Virus record (IMG/VR): IMGVR_UViG_3300025087_000044
Span: 1-64,000 of that record
Length of the DNA stretch: 64,000 bases
From: a virus
Strand: one strand, 5' to 3'
The position numbers and the translations under genes were made by a program. Numbering within the stretch: the first letter of the stretch is position 1; the number at the start of each line of letters is the position of its first letter. The notes under the pieces were generated by a model. The model saw only the letters and a list, made by a program, of their open reading frames with translations, had not been told where the DNA came from and searched no databases. Of this stretch, positions 2,959-46,973 are shown piece after piece.

Positions 2959-5508
2959 TTATTTTACTTTGTCCCACTCTGCTTTTAGTTGCGAGCGGGT
3001 TTTGATTACATTCTTATTCCATACTCCGTAATTAGCACCAAACTTGCTTTCTTGTGTAATCATTCCGTCATAGCCAAGTTTTTTTAGTGCTTTTTTTACT
3101 TCTGGCATTTCTGCAAAATATGCTTTACCATCTTTTATTCCTTGAATAATATCAGTAGAGCTATGAACAGGATTTGACAAACCGCCTGTCTTTTCCGATA
3201 TAGTCAATTTAGTACCGTCTGGTTTTGTAATAATAATTGTCTTACCTGTTTCTTTTGGAGAGATAATTTCATCTATTTGTTTAATTAAATCTCTACTTGG
3301 TTTCCGCAAATCAGCAATCTTTGCATTTTTTGAAAGAGAAATCTCGTTAAGTGTAGAACTTTTTCCTCCATAAGATTTTGCATAGGTTGGATTTTCTGTC
3401 ATATAGAAAGCGCCCCACTTGCTACGCATATTTCCAACCTCTTTTAAGTTTTCTCCTCCGTGATACAAAGTCTCGCCCTGCCCCTTCACCCACTCGTCAA
3501 AAGACAGTCCTGACGCTTTGGCCTCCACCGCGGTAAGATTGCCAGCCTTGGGCGCTATCGCCTCACCTGGGGCAGTTTTGAGGCTCTGAGGTGTTGTTTG
3601 TGGCACAACTGCCTCAGCTTTTGGGAACAACTCGTCCAGTAATTCACGCAAAGCTTTACGTTGATCTATTGCGTTTGGCACCCCTGCCTTAGATACATAC
3701 TCAATTAACTCGGGAATGCCAGCTCTTATTCCTCCAGAAAAACCTGTTTTAGGAATAGTGTCAGGGTACAACTTTCTTAATTCTTGAGCAAAAGCTGCTA
3801 CTTGCTTAGGTGTAGCATCTGCGTAACCTAACTGCCGTGCCAATTCGTCCATTTTATCAGCTACTGCCTCAAAAACAGGCGAACTCTGAGCTTCGCCAAA
3901 TATCCTGCGAAGATTTACTTTTGCAAATTCAGCTCCGTCTGCCGACTTGGTAACATTGAAATTGGGCGTTCTGAATATGCTGTCCTCGATGTCGTCCGTA
4001 ATTAAGACCAAATCACGATACTGTTTATTTAACGCTTTAACTTCAGGCGAAATGTCGTCTAGTTTTTTAGAAAAAATATCTCTAAATACACTAAAGATAC
4101 TCTTACTTCCTTCAGGTGTTTCTATTATGATTTCTCCTACATCTGCCATTCTGGCTTCTCTCTGCAGTTTACTGAATAATTGATCCTTCTTTTTGATATC
4201 TAAAGGACTTAAATTTTTACCTCCTTCCGATGCCATATCAAATAATTGTTGAATAGCGGATCTTTCTGATGGCTTTAAATTAGTAACTTTAAATTTAAGC
4301 TTTCCTTTCGCTCCCACCTCGATACCTTGATCAGATAAAACTTTTCTTACCTCTAAAAAGCTATCCATCATGTCTATCTTCTCTGTCTTGGATAGGCCTT
4401 TAATTAAATCTCCTATTGCAGACCCCACTCGCTTCTTCTCTTTGCTTATAAAGCTGAACTGCTTAACGGCTAAGTCACCGCTGATCTTTGACGGCTGAGT
4501 TATTGCACCAATCGTTTTGGGCGGATTATCAGCCAAATCCAATACTTGCCTATAAGCTCCGACTGTCGGCTCATCTGCTTCAATTACCGTATTTATTATC
4601 CTCTCGTCTAAGTTTGACTCCATGGCGCGTTTAGCTGCAGGCGAAGACTCTTTTATTTTCGCAGCCCTTACCGATGCGGTTTCTAGTCCCTCGCCAATTC
4701 TTTGAGCCACCCTCGGGATTCTACCCAGAAAATCTTTTCCGGTTTGTAGAAGCCCCGAAGCGGCGGACATATCAGGGACTGCCGAAGCAAGCTCAGACCC
4801 TCCTCTTGCAATCGCCAACAAAGCTTTATTACCAGCAGACCCTGTAGCTTCCGCAGCCTTTAATGCGGCACCCTCAACGCCTTTGGCGATTGGCCCAGCA
4901 CCAACTATAGTAGTCACAATATCAACAACACCTAACAACCCCCTAAGGTCAGCTGCAGTTTGCGGATTGGCTTCTTCCCATTCGTTGTATTTCTCAACCC
5001 CCTTAGACAGATACATTAACCCCTCTCTTATTTTAGGCTGTTCTATTGCTTGTTGCGCCTTTGCACCTAAATAATCTTGTACTACCTCAGGCGTGAGTTT
5101 CTTGGCGGCAAACTTAAGTCCTTCAAAAATTAGATCGCCAACACCGCCAGTCACTTCGCCAACCAGCTGCAGTCCGCTCCTAGCGGCTCCTTGCGTTTGA
5201 TTTTCATTACCTCCTCCTTGTATTGGAGCCGTCCTGTCATAAATACTCTTAATACGGTCAACTCTCTTACCCAACGAGTCAGCCAAAGTAGTAGCAGCTT
5301 CTTCTGTGTATTGTTTTTGCTTTGACGGATTCAAGAACGCTGGCAAGTAATCAAGCACCCCGTACTTTTTGTCATTTTTTTCTTTTAAGTAGTCATATTT
5401 ACCGGCCGCCACCTTGTTTTTATCAACAAGCAATGAATTTGAAAATCCGGGGGCAGGAGATAATCCAGCTCCGGCTCTGATTTCCGCTATTTGTTCTGGT
5501 GTAAGCAT
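2959..5508 (-). CDS. Putative DNA-ejection/internal virion protein with C-terminal ADP-ribosyltransferase-like (ART-PolyVal type) domain
   Basis: Last gene of late operon, Ala/Gly-rich helical body; C-terminal LYHGG...AFYMTENPTYAKSYG...LGYDGMI...YGVWN. Confidence 0.65.
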   Translation of the reverse strand: MLTPEQIAEIRAGAGLSPAPGFSNSLLVDKNKVAAGKYDYLKEKNDKKYGVLDYLPAFLNPSKQKQYTEEAATTLADSLGKRVDRIKSIYDRTAPIQGGGNENQTQGAARSGLQLVGEVTGGVGDLIFEGLKFAAKKLTPEVVQDYLGAKAQQAIEQPKIREGLMYLSKGVEKYNEWEEANPQTAADLRGLLGVVDIVTTIVGAGPIAKGVEGAALKAAEATGSAGNKALLAIARGGSELASAVPDMSAASGLLQTGKDFLGRIPRVAQRIGEGLETASVRAAKIKESSPAAKRAMESNLDERIINTVIEADEPTVGAYRQVLDLADNPPKTIGAITQPSKISGDLAVKQFSFISKEKKRVGSAIGDLIKGLSKTEKIDMMDSFLEVRKVLSDQGIEVGAKGKLKFKVTNLKPSERSAIQQLFDMASEGGKNLSPLDIKKKDQLFSKLQREARMADVGEIIIETPEGSKSIFSVFRDIFSKKLDDISPEVKALNKQYRDLVLITDDIEDSIFRTPNFNVTKSADGAEFAKVNLRRIFGEAQSSPVFEAVADKMDELARQLGYADATPKQVAAFAQELRKLYPDTIPKTGFSGGIRAGIPELIEYVSKAGVPNAIDQRKALRELLDELFPKAEAVVPQTTPQSLKTAPGEAIAPKAGNLTAVEAKASGLSFDEWVKGQGETLYHGGENLKEVGNMRSKWGAFYMTENPTYAKSYGGKSSTLNEISLSKNAKIADLRKPSRDLIKQIDEIISPKETGKTIIITKPDGTKLTISEKTGGLSNPVHSSTDIIQGIKDGKAYFAEMPEVKKALKKLGYDGMITQESKFGANYGVWNKNVIKTRSQLKAEWDKVK

Positions 5509-5513
5509 ATTGA

Positions 5514-7376
5514 TTATTTAATTCCTAATAATTGAATCATGTCTTCTTCAGAAATCCCCGGATTGAGTGCCGCCAAAGCATTGTACTCATTAATTAATTG
5601 CGGATTATCACTGAGCGTTTGTTCCAATACACTGATTATTCCATCATCGCCACCTGCGGCAATTAAGGCACTTTGTGCTATCTTTTTTATTCTATTAACT
5701 TCCTCCATAAATATCTCGCGTGAGACCTCCCATCGTCCAATGCCATTGCCTTTATCATCTTTAATCTCCCAATCCTTTAATTTTGTAGCCGAATTTTGTA
5801 ACATCAATCTTTCCGTATCAGATAAAGCCCCCAATGTCCCGCCTGCTTTTTTTAAATTAAGCAAAGCGTCTAATGTCTCCTTATCTGTCAATCTGTGTAC
5901 GGAAGCTTTAAAAGCCATTCTTTCGGATTTATCTATTGTTACCGGCGACCATCGTTTCAAAGCATACGTTCCGACAGACCCCAATAGTCCTTTTTTATTA
6001 TCTTCAATCTCATCAATTAATCCTAATTTATCTTGAAATGCCATTGTAGCCTCAAGATTGGATGCTGAAGTTCCTTTCAGTTTGGCTACCGCATTCATGA
6101 CATCAATCTTCATTTTAGAGTTCTTTCCTATTTCATCCATAACTTGCGCCATTGTCAGTTCTTTATCCACAACTTGTCTAGCCCAAACCATCGCCTCGCT
6201 ATTGTCCGCTATGTCAGTCGCGTTGTGTTGAAAAGTCTTAGGATCTATTAAGTTGCCGTTTTTATCTTTAACTTCTAAATGCAAATGCACTCCTCGCCCC
6301 GCAGCCAATTCTTCAGCCGATGGTGCTGTGCCATCACCTTTTAGCACATAACCAGTATTACCCATTAAACCTATCTTTTGACCTGAAGTTACAGATTCGC
6401 CCATTTTGACATTAACATCATTGAAATGCGCCATTCTCCACTTATTTCCATTTGCGTCTTCAATAACGACAGTAGTTCCCCAGCCTGGAGTACTTTGCGC
6501 TTCCACAACCTTGCCTGATATAGGAGATGTTACAGGTGAATTAAGAGTTCCAGTTATGTCATATCCACCATGTGTTTTCCTGCCGTCTTTAAAATACGAA
6601 ACAGGGGTATCATAGCTTTGTATTGGCTCAACACCCCAATCAGACAACCATTTATTGAAATCAGCAGAACTCCCAACATCTCCACTTTGAGGCTTAATCC
6701 AAGTCCTTGTACTGGTATCCCATTGCTCTAATTGACCATCTCCATCAATATCTTCCATTGTTGGGGCTTTGCCGTCATTCGGAGTGGTTTTGAGATACTC
6801 ACCCCATTTAACAAGAAGCTCATCAGACATTCCGCCATTAACAATGTCCTCAAAATCCTTGCCTGTTAATTGAGAAGCAAATGGCGTGGCTAACATATTC
6901 TGCAGTATTCCACTGCCTATGGCTCGCATCTCTTTCTCTTTGGCGGCGCGTTGAGTTTCTTGCTCCTTAATCATGCTCATTGTGGAATTGTAAATATCCA
7001 CCACCGTCCCGGAACGACGCTCTGTTTCACTGCTAATGGCATTTGAAATTAAAGTCGGATTCTGGATATTCAATCCGGCTTGCTGGTACTGCTGCATTGT
7101 GTCAGCACCCGTCCGATTGCCGTAAGCCGACCTCGCTATCTGCTTCATAGCTAAAGCAAAATCATTGCCCTCAGCAGGCACATCACCGGGAAGCGAACGA
7201 TTCATTGAAGGAAGAGTGCCTTCAAGAGAACCGCTTTCCACTGGAGCTTTTTGATTTGGGGCTGAAACTTCTTGCGCTTTGCCAGTCCAAGACTTTTGCC
7301 ACTCCGTAGGGCCGATGTGCCTGTTTGTGTTGGCTTCAAAAATGTCCTTTCCGACTCTGTAAAATTGTAATGCCAT
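5514..7376 (-). CDS. Putative ejection protein with internal M23 peptidase domain
   Basis: HGGYD (HxxxD), SPISGKV, GWGTTVVI, MAH, GLMGNTG, HLHLEV. Confidence 0.8.
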   Translation of the reverse strand: MALQFYRVGKDIFEANTNRHIGPTEWQKSWTGKAQEVSAPNQKAPVESGSLEGTLPSMNRSLPGDVPAEGNDFALAMKQIARSAYGNRTGADTMQQYQQAGLNIQNPTLISNAISSETERRSGTVVDIYNSTMSMIKEQETQRAAKEKEMRAIGSGILQNMLATPFASQLTGKDFEDIVNGGMSDELLVKWGEYLKTTPNDGKAPTMEDIDGDGQLEQWDTSTRTWIKPQSGDVGSSADFNKWLSDWGVEPIQSYDTPVSYFKDGRKTHGGYDITGTLNSPVTSPISGKVVEAQSTPGWGTTVVIEDANGNKWRMAHFNDVNVKMGESVTSGQKIGLMGNTGYVLKGDGTAPSAEELAAGRGVHLHLEVKDKNGNLIDPKTFQHNATDIADNSEAMVWARQVVDKELTMAQVMDEIGKNSKMKIDVMNAVAKLKGTSASNLEATMAFQDKLGLIDEIEDNKKGLLGSVGTYALKRWSPVTIDKSERMAFKASVHRLTDKETLDALLNLKKAGGTLGALSDTERLMLQNSATKLKDWEIKDDKGNGIGRWEVSREIFMEEVNRIKKIAQSALIAAGGDDGIISVLEQTLSDNPQLINEYNALAALNPGISEEDMIQLLGIK

Positions 7377-28126: not shown

Positions 28127-28252
28127 TTAAACCTTGTTCACTCGCTTACATCGCTTGCACTTTATCGACACTTGATACTTCACTTCGTCAGGATTACGCT
28201 CCACCTCACACAACTTGGCTTTGCATTGTTCGCACCGTATTTCGTAGCTCAT
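28127..28252 (-). CDS. Mu Com-like zinc-finger protein (41 aa, absent from ORF track)
   Basis: MSYEIRCEQCKAKLCEVERNPDEVKYQVSIKCKRCKRVNKV; ATGA overlap with terL stop. Confidence 0.8.
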   Translation of the reverse strand: MSYEIRCEQCKAKLCEVERNPDEVKYQVSIKCKRCKRVNKV

Positions 28253-29667
28253 ACCATTCGTGTAGCGTAAATGTTTTTATGTTTCTTTTTCTTTTGCAGC
28301 GGCCGCTCGAACATCCTCACATAAGTCGAATCGAATGACATCATCAATGCGTCCGCCACGTCAGGACTCTCTATTCCATTGCGCCGCATCTCATCTTTGC
28401 TCATAATCTGCAGTCGTCCCGAAGAATCTGTTTTGTACTTAATATCCAATAACTCGCTCCAATCACCATCTTTGTCGAGTTTGCCGCCATTGTTTATCCA
28501 CTTCTTCAGCTTCCAATAGTTCTCAGCACGCCGATTGATGAACTTCGTCTGCTCCTTAGCTTGCCCGCCCAGCTTAACAGCGTTGACTCTAAAACCCTGC
28601 TCCTTAAGCCTGTCAGTACAACCGCCACCCATTCCTGTATCGTCAAGACTGACATTCTGCCAATCCACCTTATTCTCCACCGCCAATCTTATCGTAGTGC
28701 CTACGGTGCTCATCAAATCGTTATCAGAGTTCTTAGCTAGGATTGTTGCGAAATTCTCACTGCGCTTAACCCAAACGTTGAAGTTCCCACCGCCTCTGGC
28801 TATATCATGCCCGATATTCCTTGTCCCGAACTCCGCGACATCCTTCTTATCCACCAAAGCACTATCGTATTCCCTGTCTGTTATCAAATTACTCCAGCCT
28901 TTGTCATCTATCGCTGATGCTTCAGGAAACTTATTCTCGTATAACACATCGAAGAATGGCTTCTTGCGGCACTCCTCAATGTATTCTTCATTAAGCCGGC
29001 CTTCGTCAAGTCCTATCTTGTAATCAATATTAAGTTTATAAAACTTCGGGTCTCTGTAGTCCTTCAAGAAATGATTCCTTTTAAATGGATTGCCAATCTT
29101 GAAGTAAAAGTTATCCATCTTATCCCCTAACATTCGGAATATCTTCGCCTCAATGTCATCATCAATCAGAGCCGCTTCGTCCAGTACAACATTGCTTGCC
29201 CCAAACCCCATCAACGCTTCGCCGGCAGTTTGCTTGTTTCTGGAATCCGCCGACAAGATGTAGACCTCACCCATCGAACCGTCAGTGTGCTTAAATGTCA
29301 ATCGGCTCTTGCTGCGCTCTCTTCTCAAGTGCTCAAGACTTTCACCCTTCGCTATGTCCAGTTTCTGCTTGGTGTAGTCATTGTCAAAGGCATGGTCAAT
29401 GATGTAGCTCATGATAATCTTAGCCTTCTTCTCACTAGGTGCCACAATCGCCCACTTCTCAGGAAAGGTCGCTACCCTAGTAAGAACAGCCAACGCTACG
29501 GTTAAAGATTTCCCATAGCGCGTATGCGCAGCCAGCCAATTCCTTGGGTGAACTCTTCCAAATATAAGCCTAAAAATATCTTGTTGTCCTGCGGATAATT
29601 GAATTGGCTTACGTTCTTCGTCTTTATACATTGCCGCAACCATTTTCTGGACTTTTATATCACTCAT
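28249..29667 (-). CDS. terL: Terminase large subunit
   Basis: TRYGKS Walker A, VVLDEAA Walker B, IGNP, GHDIARGG, DDTGMGGG, SPDVADAL. Confidence 0.95.
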   Translation of the reverse strand: MSDIKVQKMVAAMYKDEERKPIQLSAGQQDIFRLIFGRVHPRNWLAAHTRYGKSLTVALAVLTRVATFPEKWAIVAPSEKKAKIIMSYIIDHAFDNDYTKQKLDIAKGESLEHLRRERSKSRLTFKHTDGSMGEVYILSADSRNKQTAGEALMGFGASNVVLDEAALIDDDIEAKIFRMLGDKMDNFYFKIGNPFKRNHFLKDYRDPKFYKLNIDYKIGLDEGRLNEEYIEECRKKPFFDVLYENKFPEASAIDDKGWSNLITDREYDSALVDKKDVAEFGTRNIGHDIARGGGNFNVWVKRSENFATILAKNSDNDLMSTVGTTIRLAVENKVDWQNVSLDDTGMGGGCTDRLKEQGFRVNAVKLGGQAKEQTKFINRRAENYWKLKKWINNGGKLDKDGDWSELLDIKYKTDSSGRLQIMSKDEMRRNGIESPDVADALMMSFDSTYVRMFERPLQKKKKHKNIYATRMV

Positions 29668-29878
29668 AGAAAATATCGCTTATTATGCAAGTTGCAGTCC
29701 AGAATTGACGATTTCCGCTGGTAGTCTTTTGATGGCAACTTCTACACAATGATATTAAATTGTCCTCTCGGCAATTTTTCTTCTCGTAGTCTATATGGTG
29801 AACTTCCAACTTTCGACTTCCTTCGGTTTTTCCACAAAATCTACATTTTCTTTTGTGCTCTTCTGTAAAAGGCTTCAC
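29660..29878 (-). CDS. Short, probably internally deleted HNH endonuclease
   Basis: FTEEHKRK joined directly to CRFCG..LEVHHIDYEKKNCREDNLISLCRSCH. Confidence 0.8.
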   Translation of the reverse strand: MKPFTEEHKRKCRFCGKTEGSRKLEVHHIDYEKKNCREDNLISLCRSCHQKTTSGNRQFWTATCIISDIFYE

Positions 29879-30228
29879 AATGTTTTTAAAGCCTCTTGAA
29901 TATCAGCTCGAATATCAGTGCCTGATTGGGAGTCAACTTGATCGGCCTCCGCTCCTCGTCCTTGTAAAGACTCGCTACTAGTTTTTGCATCTTCTCGCTC
30001 ATTGGATAGTTTCCTTAAAGTTATCTCTAGGGTGGTTAGCTTATCGCCGCCGCTTGTTACGTCCATCTCTTGAGGAATCGTCCTGGAGCAAATCTTGAGT
30101 GCTATCATGGTCTTAGTCTTCTCACTGGTGCCGTCCATTATCTTATCAATATGAACCCAGCACTTGCCAATCACCTTAGCGCGAAGCAATTCCTCGACCA
30201 TTGTTTTCCTTCCCACAATGCTTCCCAT
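29875..30228 (-). CDS. Probable terminase small subunit
   Basis: Upstream of terL; QEMDVTSGGDKL motif. Confidence 0.55.
   Translation of the reverse strand: MGSIVGRKTMVEELLRAKVIGKCWVHIDKIMDGTSEKTKTMIALKICSRTIPQEMDVTSGGDKLTTLEITLRKLSNEREDAKTSSESLQGRGAEADQVDSQSGTDIRADIQEALKTL
29886..30002 (-). pseudogene. Orphaned second copy of the terL 5' end (38 aa), overlapping terS in another frame
   Basis: MSEKMQKLVASLYKDEERRPIKLTPNQALIFELIFKRL* vs TerL MSDIKVQKMVAAMYKDEERKPIQLSAGQQDIFRLIFGRV. Confidence 0.9.
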
Positions 30229-40821: not shown

Positions 40822-41004
40822 ATGAAAAAAGGCCAACAATTGGCGTGTATATTGCGAGAACTTGCAGAAAACATTGCCATAATCAGAGACAAGGGGACTG
40901 ATTGGAGCGAATGTATGTTTGATGATATCGAAGAAGTTTGTCGTGAGTTTGACAAAAGCGATAAATTCACAACCAAAGAGAATCGAGTTAATCAAGGGAA
41001 ATGA
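40822..41004 (+). CDS. Hypothetical protein
   Basis: Ends KFTTKENRVNQGK, shared with upstream gene. Confidence 0.6.
   Translation: MKKGQQLACILRELAENIAIIRDKGTDWSECMFDDIEEVCREFDKSDKFTTKENRVNQGK
40859..40985 (+). repeat. Exact 127-bp direct repeat, copy 2; probable junction of segments A and B
   Basis: Identical to 1-127. Confidence 0.95.
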
Positions 41005-41231
41005 TTATGACAATATCAGATAAAGAATTGGGGGAAAAGCTTCTCAAGTGGATTAGGCGGTATCATCAATATTGCCATAAAGTTATGGTTGAGTTGCCCG
41101 ATGGAAACATTACAACGCAATACAAAGAAGGCGACCTTATGATATGCAAAGCTTGTAAAGATGAGATAGCTTTACTAGAAGAAGAAATAAACAAAAGAAA
41201 TAAAAAGATAATTAAAAATAGACTTGTATGA
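41001..41231 (+). CDS. Hypothetical protein, homolog of 143..379
   Basis: Near-identical translation. Confidence 0.75.
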   Translation: MIMTISDKELGEKLLKWIRRYHQYCHKVMVELPDGNITTQYKEGDLMICKACKDEIALLEEEINKRNKKIIKNRLV

Positions 41232-43803: not shown

Positions 43804-44154
43804 ATGAATAAAGAAAAACTGTATGTGCCAATCGCAATCTTGATTGTTGGTGTTGTTCTCGGTACGTCTATTGTGTCGGTTCAAGTATTAAAACAGAAGT
43901 CCATTGAAAGACAGCAGCAAAGAGAATTGTTGTCCAAGGAAGAGCTGGATAGTAGAAGAATAAAAGAGGACAGGCGGAATGCAGAGCTTTTGGATGATTG
44001 CCTTGCAGGTGCTGACAGTGCATATTGGAATTATGTTGAGAATAACATGGAAGAGAAAAAAGACGGAACGTATTTTGGTGAGAATTGGAGATGGGATGAG
44101 GCGCAAAGCCGCAAAGACGCAAAAGAGAAAAGTTGTTTTACGCAATATAAATAA
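43804..44154 (+). CDS. Membrane-anchored hypothetical protein
   Basis: N-terminal TM, coiled coil, two Cys. Confidence 0.65.
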   Translation: MNKEKLYVPIAILIVGVVLGTSIVSVQVLKQKSIERQQQRELLSKEELDSRRIKEDRRNAELLDDCLAGADSAYWNYVENNMEEKKDGTYFGENWRWDEAQSRKDAKEKSCFTQYK

Positions 44155-44155
44155 T

Positions 44156-44305
44156 ATGAATGTAATAAATAAAGAAAATTATAAAATTCCAGTCTTTAGT
44201 TGGTGTCCTGAGATTGAAGACAGTGCAATGGAGCAGATTGACCATTTGGCACAGCTTCCTTTTGCAGTTAAACACATCTCAATCATGCCGGATTGTCACG
44301 CATGA
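44156..44305 (+). pseudogene. Orphaned rtcB 5' fragment (49 aa)
   Basis: IPVFSW...AMEQIDHLAQLPFAVKHISIMPDCHA*. Confidence 0.9.
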
Positions 44306-44327
44306 GCATTGTGTGCGAATATAATGT

Positions 44328-44840
44328 ATGAAAAATTCCCTACAAGCATTAAAAAACAGAAAAGAGAAAAGAAAGTTTTTAAAGAAGACAATAGACCAAA
44401 GTTCGTTTTCTCACCACGTAGAAAGAGTTTGTAAGGATTGTGGAGAAATAAAAAAGTGCGATTGGATGAGTGAGTTTAATGCAAATGGAACACCTCAATA
44501 TAGAGCAAGATGTAAGGAATGCCATAATAAGTTGATTAGAAAAAGAAGGGTGAAGCGTTGGCCGTATATATTAAAAAAGAAAAGAGACAATCAAAGGATT
44601 GTGAAACAGAGATGCGTTGATTATCTTGGCGGAAAATGTTGTATGTGTGGATATGATAAAAGCATAAGAGCTTTAACCTTCCACCACAAAAACAGGAAAG
44701 ATAAAGAAAAGGCGATTTCAGTTATGATAGTTAATAATTCTTTTCGGAAAATAAAAAAAGAATTAAAGAAATGTGTTTTGGTGTGTTTTAACCGTCACAT
44801 GGAAATAGAAGAAGAGTATGTAAAGAATAACAGTAAATAG
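44328..44840 (+). CDS. HNH homing endonuclease
   Basis: CKDC..CKEC; YLGGKCCMCGY...ALTFHH...ELKKCVLVCFNRH. Confidence 0.85.
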   Translation: MKNSLQALKNRKEKRKFLKKTIDQSSFSHHVERVCKDCGEIKKCDWMSEFNANGTPQYRARCKECHNKLIRKRRVKRWPYILKKKRDNQRIVKQRCVDYLGGKCCMCGYDKSIRALTFHHKNRKDKEKAISVMIVNNSFRKIKKELKKCVLVCFNRHMEIEEEYVKNNSK

Positions 44841-44843
44841 CTT

Positions 44844-46973
44844 ATGTTTACCTATAAAAAAGATGGATTCAATGTTCCAGTCAAAAGTTGGATACCAGAA
44901 AAAGATTATTATTCTGACGTTGCTATGGTTGAACAGTGCGAGAATTTGGCAAGGTTGCCTTTTTCTTTCGGACACGTTGTCTTGTGTCCTGACGGACATG
45001 TTGGTTTCGGTTGCCCAATCGGTTCAGTCGTTGCAACTAAAGCTGTAATAATTCCCAATGTTTGTGGGGTAGATATTGGAGCTGTAGATAGGGATACTGA
45101 GATTTTAACTAAAAGTGGATGGATTACTATAGATAAATATAACAACATTGATGATGTCTTAATTTATGATAATTACAAGCAAACTTCCTTTTTTAGCAAG
45201 CCATTGTTGTATATTGTAAAACCTTGTGAAGATTTTACGGAATACAAAAGCAAATATGGATTAGACCAGGTTTTGAGTGACGAGCATAGAATGTTGGTTT
45301 ATGAAGGGTATGGAAAAGATAGAACAAACAATACTTATTTTTGTAAGGACTTTAGGGAAAAATTATCAAAATTAAAAAAACAAGATTATTATTCAGTAAG
45401 AACGACGTTCGCAACAAATGAAAAGGGAATAAAATTAACAGATGAGCAGATAGCTATTATGGTAATGGTTTCTGCTGATGGTCATATTAGAAAACAGTCT
45501 AGTGTATATACAAATGTAGAGATGCATTTTAAAAAGAGTAGAAAAATAAATCGTTGTAAGGTTTTGTTGAATAAAGCAAAAGTTAGTTTTAAAGAATATG
45601 ACCACAGTGATAAGACAAAGTCAATAATCTTTAAGTTAGATTGGGAGTGTAAGAAAGAATTAACTGCTTTATATCTATGTAATCAGCATCAGGCAAAAGT
45701 TGTTTTTGACGAGTATTTGTATTGGGATGGAACCATTGATAAAAAAAGAAATCATAAAATGTATTCCACAACAAAGAAAGTAAACGCCGATGTTGTTCAG
45801 TATATATGTGCCGTGAATGGAGTTAGGGCTGGCATACATCTTCAAAGTTATAAAAATGAAAATTGGAATGATTCATATAGCGTGTATCAAACGAGAAACG
45901 AATATGTTGGATTCAGTCGTCCCCAAAAAATAAAGATACCAAACGGTAACAAGTATTGTTTTGTTGTTGAAACTGGATATTTTGTTGCTAGAAGGAATAA
46001 CAAGATATTTGTTACTGGAAACTGTGGAATGATTGCGGTTAAAACATCTCTTACTGAATTGGACAGAGAAACATTAAAAAAGATTCTTGGTAATATAAGA
46101 CAAACGATTCCTGTAGGATTCGAACACCACAAAACAGACCAAGACATTACCCTCATGCCGAATTATGGGTTAGGAGCAGGTGGCGAAATAACAGGAAGAG
46201 AGTACATGTCAGCCCTAAGGCAGATTGGAACACTTGGTGGAGGTAATCATTTTATCGAAATCCAAAAAGGAGATGATGGGCATATCTGGATAATGATTCA
46301 TTCGGGTTCGAGAAACTTAGGAAAGCAAGTTGCTGATTATTATAACAAAGTCGCTATTGAGTTAAACGAAAAATATCACTCCTCAGTACCTAATGAATGG
46401 CAGTTAGCGTTTTTGCCTGTTGACAGTCAAGAAGGACAGAATTATATTTCCGAGATGAATTATTGCGTTGAGTTTGCGTTGGCTAATAGACAGTTAATGA
46501 TGAGCAGGATAATTGATATTTTCTGCAAGCATACAGAATTGGCTGCTAAGGGTTGGGAACCGCCAATCAATATAGCTCACAATTATGCCAAGCAAGAAAA
46601 TCATTACGGACAAAATTTATGGGTTCACAGAAAAGGAGCAACGTTAGCGCAAGACGGAACAATAGGAATAATCCCTGGCTCACAAGGTTCAAGTTCGTTC
46701 ATCGTTAAGGGCAAGGGAAGTAAAGAATCATTTAATTCATGTTCACATGGTGCAGGAAGGCTTATGAGCAGAACCAAAGCCATGGCCACTCTTAACCTTG
46801 AAGATGAGATAAAGAAACTTGACGACCAAGGTATTTTGCATGCAATCAGAGGCAAGAAAGACCTTGATGAGGCAAGCGGTTCTTATAAGAACGTAGAAGA
46901 AGTAATGAACAATCAATCTGATTTAGTGGATATTTTAGTAAAATTAAGCCCAATGGGTGTCGTGAAAGGATAG
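44844..46973 (+). CDS. rtcB: RtcB RNA ligase precursor containing an intein
   Basis: PDGH.G.G.PIG, GVDIG/CG, GTLGGGNHFIE, HSGSR, HNY, HRKGAT, IPGSQG, SCSHGAGR, DEA. Confidence 0.95.
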   Translation: MFTYKKDGFNVPVKSWIPEKDYYSDVAMVEQCENLARLPFSFGHVVLCPDGHVGFGCPIGSVVATKAVIIPNVCGVDIGAVDRDTEILTKSGWITIDKYNNIDDVLIYDNYKQTSFFSKPLLYIVKPCEDFTEYKSKYGLDQVLSDEHRMLVYEGYGKDRTNNTYFCKDFREKLSKLKKQDYYSVRTTFATNEKGIKLTDEQIAIMVMVSADGHIRKQSSVYTNVEMHFKKSRKINRCKVLLNKAKVSFKEYDHSDKTKSIIFKLDWECKKELTALYLCNQHQAKVVFDEYLYWDGTIDKKRNHKMYSTTKKVNADVVQYICAVNGVRAGIHLQSYKNENWNDSYSVYQTRNEYVGFSRPQKIKIPNGNKYCFVVETGYFVARRNNKIFVTGNCGMIAVKTSLTELDRETLKKILGNIRQTIPVGFEHHKTDQDITLMPNYGLGAGGEITGREYMSALRQIGTLGGGNHFIEIQKGDDGHIWIMIHSGSRNLGKQVADYYNKVAIELNEKYHSSVPNEWQLAFLPVDSQEGQNYISEMNYCVEFALANRQLMMSRIIDIFCKHTELAAKGWEPPINIAHNYAKQENHYGQNLWVHRKGATLAQDGTIGIIPGSQGSSSFIVKGKGSKESFNSCSHGAGRLMSRTKAMATLNLEDEIKKLDDQGILHAIRGKKDLDEASGSYKNVEEVMNNQSDLVDILVKLSPMGVVKG
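45081..46022 (+). mobile_element. 314-aa intein starting with Ala, with LAGLIDADG-type endonuclease region
   Basis: AVDRDTEILTKSGW...SDEHRM...VSADGH...YWDG...YCFVVETGYFVARRNNKIFVTGN/C. Confidence 0.9.

Follow-up and report, generated by a model that had tools for sequence, protein, structure and literature searches.

Homing endonuclease genes that settle in a conserved gene and supply a spare gene end are already known in fungi. The closest described case is that of the WHO elements of yeast: every time they home, the 3' end of FBA1 is replaced, with no splicing (PMC7282813). The fragment of the old gene that is stranded in the process has been proposed to act as a homology arm in repair (Coughlan et al. 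2020, PMC7282813). Mobile open reading frames (ORFs) have likewise generated gene hybrids in atp6 of Allomyces and in atp6, atp9, cox2 and nad3 of Glomus (PMC3630166), and partial duplications of cob and atp6 have been described (PMC6279837). Intragenic insertions in phages are known to split the gene into two polypeptides, as do mobE in nrdA of phage Aeh1, mobA in gene 60 and seg in gene 43; a review of mobile DNA in T4 gives split genes only, and the word "duplication" is absent from it (PMC2988022). We found no phage paper on gene-end duplication by a homing endonuclease, which is weak evidence of absence given an incomplete coverage of the literature. Here we describe a locus at the RNA ligase gene rtcB in a phage record of IMG/VR (IMGVR_UViG_3300025087_000044) that is 99 kb long; its first 64,000 nucleotides, taken as a whole, are called the window below. 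At this locus, a selfish HNH gene appears to sit in rtcB without breaking it, having brought along a spare start of ~53 codons and left the original start stranded upstream. We put the probability that this is a homing-endonuclease cassette living inside rtcB without splicing at roughly 85%.

The locus consists of three adjoining pieces on the plus strand: an orphan rtcB start, an HNH gene and a complete rtcB. The orphan 5' fragment (44156-44305) has its own ATG and runs for 49 codons to 44302, followed by a TGA at 44303-44305. It matches PHROG 1075, "tRNA splicing ligase" (E = 2.8e-7), and is 42% identical to residues 1-52 of the downstream RtcB (E = 9e-12). It ends one codon past the His (44297-44299) of the metal-binding MPDxH motif, and it retains ATG CCG GAT TGT CAC at 44285-44299, presumed to be the left half of the target. 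Within a few bases past that His codon, the sequence ceases to be homologous to uninterrupted rtcB alleles. This is the left junction, and it opens a short cassette leader (44300-44327) with a TATAAT at 44320-44325. The free-standing HNH endonuclease gene follows (44328-44840); it encodes 170 amino acids, with an N-terminal zinc ribbon and a C-terminal HNH domain. The complete rtcB (44844-46973, 709 amino acids including an insertion taken up below) begins 3 nt past the end of the HNH gene. Its codons 1-53 (44844-45002) make up the replacement 5' module, which runs in frame and without a break into the remainder of the gene and has the motif CPDGH (44985-44999) in place of MPDxH. The protein gives a full-length match to Pfam RtcB (PF01139, E = 1.2e-104), and its translation has the xPDxH, DIG..CGM (across the insertion) and GGGNHF motifs. 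An earlier note on this DNA, made from the letters alone, had given coordinates and motifs for the orphan, the HNH gene and rtcB, and these are correct.

The comparison with fungi that the earlier note drew is also sound: the precedent of gene-end duplication is real (PMC3630166, PMC6279837), and the WHO elements (PMC7282813) are closer still. As in WHO, the nuclease gene has a complete, chimeric and presumably resistant gene on one side and a stranded fragment on the other, the unit is the nuclease plus a gene end that would confer resistance, and the histories of the two ends of the host gene disagree. Cleavage and allele specificity have been established by experiment for WHO, whereas for the rtcB cassette they are predictions from sequence. 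The WHO nucleases are intein- or LAGLIDADG-like, whereas this one is a zinc-ribbon HNH enzyme. WHO replaces the 3' end of a nuclear gene in meiosis; here it is the 5' end that is replaced, in a phage, and the exchange would take place in co-infection. Because the rtcB cassette replaces the 5' end, its relatives also carry a promoter-like leader. The mitochondrial mobile ORFs resemble the cassette in pairing an endonuclease ORF with a foreign gene end while the native end stays in place and is closer to relatives. They differ from it in being C-terminal, in using LAGLIDADG or GIY-YIG ORFs and in often being in frame with the host gene. The mechanism is thus not new in itself. What is new is the family-level evidence in phages; a zinc-ribbon HNH family specialised on the MPDxH site of rtcB, with 5' rather than 3' replacement; and the promoter-like leader together with an immunity signature beside the catalytic residues.

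The arrangement is repeated in other phages. A 103-kb IMG/VR contig (L040) has all three parts. Its orphan ends at MPDSHV and belongs to a different rtcB clade from the orphan of the window, its HNH protein is 47% identical to that of the window, and its rtcB begins 1 nt later. The first 53 residues of this rtcB are 73-77% identical to the replacement start in the window, and the body is ~62% identical. To survey the family, IMG/VR and the JGI metagenomes were scanned with an alignment of HNH homologues, and the flanks were searched with RtcB profile Hidden Markov Models. This gave 65 loci with a full-length family member, representing 47 clusters at 90% identity. In 35 of the 44 clusters with enough DNA, rtcB is directly downstream of the HNH gene, and two further clusters have only the first rtcB codons, at a contig end. 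An orphan is present upstream of the HNH gene in 15 of 41 clusters. All 14 readable orphans (13 distinct ones and that of the window) retain ATGCCNGAY-NNN-CAY, encoding MPDxH, and homology ends 0-8 nt past the His codon in every one of them. In most, a leader resembling TTGACA, 17 nt and TATAAT comes next, and then the HNH gene. Since the contigs come from many samples and include some of 44-121 kb, assembly error is not the explanation. The HNH protein of the window is found in identical form on 7 contigs. Conversely, the HNH family was not detected upstream in 28 of 30 IMG/VR rtcB loci tested (26 distinct alleles), so the cassette is polymorphic for presence and absence.

An HNH gene at a conserved site of a phage gene whose function is not destroyed also describes the HNH introns in terL and the tape measure gene of phage ICP1 (PMC10448857), and such intron-borne HNH genes splitting essential phage genes are well documented there. 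We considered whether the HNH gene lies in a group I intron or some other spliced element, in which case the orphan would be exon 1 and would be joined to the downstream gene in the RNA. The genome itself lends this some substance, with 8 matches to the group I intron family RF00028 (E = 2.4e-19 to 9e-3) in its capsid-gene region (L157, genome positions 86500-93500, past the window). These matches serve equally as a positive control, and an Rfam scan of 43900-45300 at E<=10 returned no RF00028 match. This phage, then, uses introns but not at rtcB, and the assertion of the earlier note that the target is restored without splicing is supported. Furthermore, the downstream rtcB has its own ATG and a full RtcB-homologous N-terminus from residue 1, as do all the surveyed relatives, and splicing would duplicate that domain. 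We give next to no credence to an intron here. Unlike the ICP1 cases, which need RNA splicing, rtcB is restored at the DNA level, with no intron core detectable.

A homing cassette also makes a prediction about which of the two rtcB starts is foreign. The earlier note expected the orphan to be closer than the replacement to the rtcB starts of HNH-free relatives, and this is true in 23 of 29 IMG/VR relatives. Many ordinary full-length RtcB proteins form a clade whose N-termini are 73-79% identical to the orphan, the best full-length matches being those at 79%. The replacement start shares 65-77% identity with the starts in L040, L076 and L011, as against 33-48% with other relatives. Two of these, L040 and L076, carry a window-type HNH gene or a remnant of one; no HNH was detected in L011. 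The special affinity to these three vanishes past residue ~54-80. A regression of N-terminal identity on body identity that included sequences P0001-P0015 was set aside, as that set had been chosen by similarity to the orphan.

The same discordance is seen between other loci. The 5' module is 85-94% identical among L081, L094, L076 and L011, whose rtcB bodies are only 65-73% identical and no closer to each other than to alleles with unrelated starts. In profiles of DNA identity, the shared tract is sharply bounded on the left, precisely at the leader, and on the right at ~codons 65-100. Dating is possible for one pair of loci, L127 and L133. Between these, the synonymous divergence (dS) is 0.40 for the HNH gene and 0.34 for the linked rtcB 5' end, but the orphans differ at a proportion of synonymous sites (pS) of 0.755, which is saturated, and at a proportion of nonsynonymous sites (pN) of 0.115. 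Saturation with a low pN, next to a cassette that is young, implies that the two orphans were still functioning genes while they diverged, and that one and the same cassette came into each of them later. The mosaic pattern and the dating both support the view, put forward in the earlier note, that the mobile unit is the HNH gene plus a gene end. The HNH gene and the 5' module have spread horizontally across diverged rtcB bodies, and have done so at the same codon in many independent phage lineages. There is also a series of decay: in L076 the last ~22 codons of the HNH gene remain (E = 3.7e-11) beside a cassette-type start, and L011 has a cassette-type start and no HNH.

Some features of these loci would fit a quite different role for the HNH protein, as a functional partner of RtcB in a nuclease-ligase operon rather than a selfish element, with the duplicated start being an unrelated local duplication. 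The HNH gene is consistently just upstream of rtcB, often 1-26 nt from its start or overlapping it, and it is under purifying selection (dN/dS, the ratio of nonsynonymous to synonymous divergence, is ~0.07-0.16). A partnership would not account for the orphans of 15 clusters being cut at one codon, nor does it explain why the linked 5' module is foreign, why linked alleles have lost MPD or why HNH remnants lie beside cassette-type starts. Moreover, most related rtcB genes have no HNH gene at all. We regard a partnership as very improbable.

The loss of MPD bears on the presumed target. Only 15 of 42 distinct HNH-linked alleles retain the MPD of the motif. Among HNH-free alleles the figure is 24 of 26 (Fisher p = 3e-6), and among orphans it is 14 of 14 (p = 1.7e-5), in tests that treat alleles as independent and ignore shared ancestry. 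The other linked alleles have MSD, SPD, MAD, LPD, MGD, CPD or IPD, amounting to at least 7 different substitutions. On the simplest reading, ATGCC would be part of the recognition sequence of the HNH enzyme. The earlier note had called the replacement end "cleavage-resistant"; the bias in MPD codons among linked alleles suggests that it may be so. Because all orphans end at one place, the break most likely falls a few bases 3' of the His codon. ATGCCNGAY-NNN-CAY would thereby offer a predicted natural target for a compact zinc-ribbon HNH enzyme, accompanied by a panel of putatively resistant natural alleles.

We propose the following course of events. The unit would comprise the HNH gene, the short leader in front of it, which in relatives has a promoter-like sequence, and foreign rtcB codons from 1 to ~53-100. 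It would insert a few bases past the His codon of MPDxH, so that the first 49 codons of the resident gene are left upstream as the orphan and the resident rtcB body comes to be read from the imported start. The HNH enzyme would cut or nick an HNH-free rtcB at or near ATGCCNGAY-NNN-CAY, and the break would be repaired from an HNH-bearing genome, its right end pairing in rtcB downstream of the cut. Its left end could pair with the orphan of the donor, giving two-sided homing as proposed for the yeast WHO elements, or it could be joined illegitimately, giving one-sided homing as shown for T4 introns (PMC2988022). Afterwards, the imported start would be immune by virtue of its changed M-P-D-x codons, and the orphan would be immune by virtue of having lost the right half of the site.

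The two ways of repairing the left end assign different roles to the orphan. Intronless homing in T4 (SegF, SegG, MobE; PMC2988022, PMC2790892) is a useful reference here. It resembles the rtcB case in having a free-standing homing endonuclease gene beside its target, cleavage away from the insertion point and co-conversion of the flanks. It differs in that the T4 flanks are syntenic, and hence no gene fragment is left. One could accordingly suppose an ordinary free-standing HNH gene upstream of rtcB that normally spreads by clean two-sided conversion through the flanking genes. The orphan would then be an accidental scar of one-sided illegitimate repair in places where upstream homology was absent, and would have no role in later mobility. 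It is just the role of the orphan that sets this apart from the cassette as we have described it. A one-sided illegitimate join is favoured by the number of loci that have no orphan and by slight variation in the filler bases: the HNH gene and rtcB occur without an orphan in 26 of 41 clusters, an orphan can be present at some loci and missing at others within one cassette subfamily, and the bases between the His codon and the leader vary among subfamilies. One-sided illegitimate repair is documented in T4 (PMC2988022), and the orphans of L082, L093, L105 and L135 are visibly decaying. The constancy of the junction points the other way. Long resection is a feature of one-sided repair in T4, whereas every readable orphan ends within 0-8 nt of the same codon. 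In L127 and L133, the junction is identical despite the saturated orphans, and identity climbs over the last ~50 nt of the orphan, which resembles a left conversion tract and favours two-sided repair through the orphan. We think an accidental scar possible, if somewhat doubtful. That the orphan is the left homology arm of the cassette and not debris is an idea that we hold tentatively, at a little short of even odds.

If the orphan does serve as this homology arm, the orphan, leader, HNH gene and spare 5' end together would be a self-contained mobile element that is independent of context. It could enter any rtcB allele regardless of the genomic neighbourhood, and it would add to introns and inteins a third means by which a conserved site in a phage gene can house a nuclease gene. 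Repeated homing would also drive unusual diversity at the codons beside the metal ligands of RtcB. The evidence concerns a whole family and not a single locus, so that phage homing endonucleases can be said to have access to a conserved gene by way of a spare end, with neither intron nor intein. For annotation, it means that short "hypothetical" ORFs beside HNH genes may be stranded gene ends. It also means that the neighbouring gene is a chimera whose parts have different histories, and this leads both gene trees and the clustering of pangenomes astray. As to the evolution of phages, it provides a concrete route by which nuclease genes pass between non-syntenic genomes, overwriting codons close to an active site.

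Several observations weigh against this account of the locus. First, the copy in the window departs from its relatives in two respects. Of the zinc-binding CxxC pairs, C104, C107 and C153 are present, but residue 156 (44793-44795), a zinc-binding Cys in >=90% of relatives, is Arg. The TTGACA-like -35 element of relatives is not present in the leader of the window either, and a sigma-70 scan upstream of the HNH gene found no promoter-like site, leaving a promoter-like leader only in the relatives. The substituted zinc ligand and the missing -35 suggest that the cassette copy of the window may already be decaying. Second, the search for a near-isogenic genome whose site is empty found none. The rtcB body has relatives of ~70% identity at best, and the clade nearest to the orphan has bodies that are 61-68% identical to that of the window. 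With relatives so distant, it cannot be demonstrated that the orphan and the body of the window were once one gene. A blastn search of INPHARED gave only a 116-nt match, to the rtcB of a Clostridioides phage, and none of six flanking proteins of the window is present in any of 33 rtcB loci. Third, the 15 HNH-linked alleles that still read MPD are counter-examples to immunity, and shared ancestry among alleles tempers the Fisher values given above.

Two individual loci belong with these points. Loci L079 and L080, from different samples, have the same orphan and HNH gene. In L080, the proteins encoded by the orphan and by the linked rtcB do not differ past the first ~10 codons of the latter, and both have the presumed target site; this locus is either a gene conversion or recombinant between the two copies, or an assembly chimera. 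In L029 (3105-3588), an orphan rtcB start ends just before the PD codons and lies 370 nt upstream of a normal-type rtcB, and the 370-nt spacer has no HNH remnant at E<0.4. The earlier note had named duplication in HNH-free relatives as one of the findings that would refute it. L029 is such a case, to be set against the 15 clusters in which the duplication comes with an HNH gene; we take it to be a cassette that has decayed or some other element.

The HNH protein of the window matches PHROG 2255, "HNH endonuclease" (E = 2e-22). In an alignment of 21 family sequences, H119, H120, N155 and H157 are invariant, within a CxxC..HH..N..H signature. Searches with the window protein gave no match in Pfam at E<=0.01, nothing useful in NCBIfam and no match to Protein Data Bank (PDB) sequences at E<=1. 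An AlphaFold2 model has a predicted local distance difference test score (pLDDT) of 94.5. The fold matches to this model are weak (Z at most 5), and nearly all are to His-Me nucleases. The best is T4 endonuclease VII (Z 5.0, root-mean-square deviation 3.5, 67 residues aligned), followed by Cap5 (Z 4.8) and Gme HNH (Z 4.5). With Foldseek, every E-value was >0.3.

The HNH cassette is not alone in this gene. The excess length of the window rtcB is due to a 314-amino-acid in-frame, intein-like insertion (45081-46022, plus strand) between DIG and CGM. It begins with Ala and ends in Gly-Asn, and the next residue is Cys. In L128, the same site holds a homologous insertion whose first residue is Cys, and the insertion of the window may be a natural Cys1-to-Ala variant. 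It has no intein match in Pfam or NCBIfam, and the sole intein match in the PDB is weak (E = 0.49). It may be a second selfish element in rtcB, and the right edge of the cassette tract may have been set anew by it. In-frame insertions at DIG/CGM are found in the window, in L128 (3023-4579) and in L098 (3075-5135), the last with an HNH-like domain and ending in His-Asn. Another locus, L009 (3578-5797), has an intein-like insertion at MPD, two codons from the HNH cassette junction. The rtcB gene is a hotspot for selfish elements.

The opposite end of rtcB has been affected in L005, and in the same way in L007. There, a LAGLIDADG ORF (5257-5775) directly follows a complete rtcB, the whole spanning 3971-5775, and is fused in frame to a diverged second copy of the last ~28 rtcB codons (5689-5772). 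Seven tRNA genes come next after the LAGLIDADG ORF in L005. This is a 3'-end version of the same strategy by another nuclease family, in the classic mitochondrial layout.

The earlier note counted three cases of such duplication in the window, and cassettes are indeed present at terL and at a DUF1064 gene as well. The first is on the minus strand and consists of an orphan terL start (~29889-30002, 38 codons) that overlaps the 3' end of the upstream ORF in another frame, an HNH gene (29660-29878, 72 amino acids, Pfam HNH E = 9.5e-9) and terL (28249-29667), whose start is 56% identical to the orphan over 41 amino acids. It had no replicate among 5 IMG/VR terL relatives. The second is on the plus strand and is a mirror image affecting a 3' end. 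A DUF1064 gene with a new C-terminus (720-1115) is followed by an HNH gene with a NUMOD3 motif (1096-1623) and by the stranded old C-terminus (~1619-1687), which has 78% DNA identity to 1038-1093. The stop codon of the stranded end overlaps the ATG of the next gene. The DUF1064 case and the LAGLIDADG case of L005 are the direct phage counterparts of the mitochondrial mobile ORFs, of which the rtcB case is the mirror image.

The earlier note had proposed a survey of phage HNH flanks for duplicated peptides. In a rough survey of the flanks of HNH genes of other families (L042-L075, L136-L156), scoring peptide or DNA duplications at E<1e-4 with positions in the same contigs as controls, duplications were seen at 11 of 46 other-family loci as against 11 of 167 controls; some of them are plain DNA repeats and not gene ends. 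The window also has a 364-nt direct repeat, at 1-358 and 40859-41222, with 92% identity between copies ~40.9 kb apart; it spans a small ORF (143-379) and its copy.

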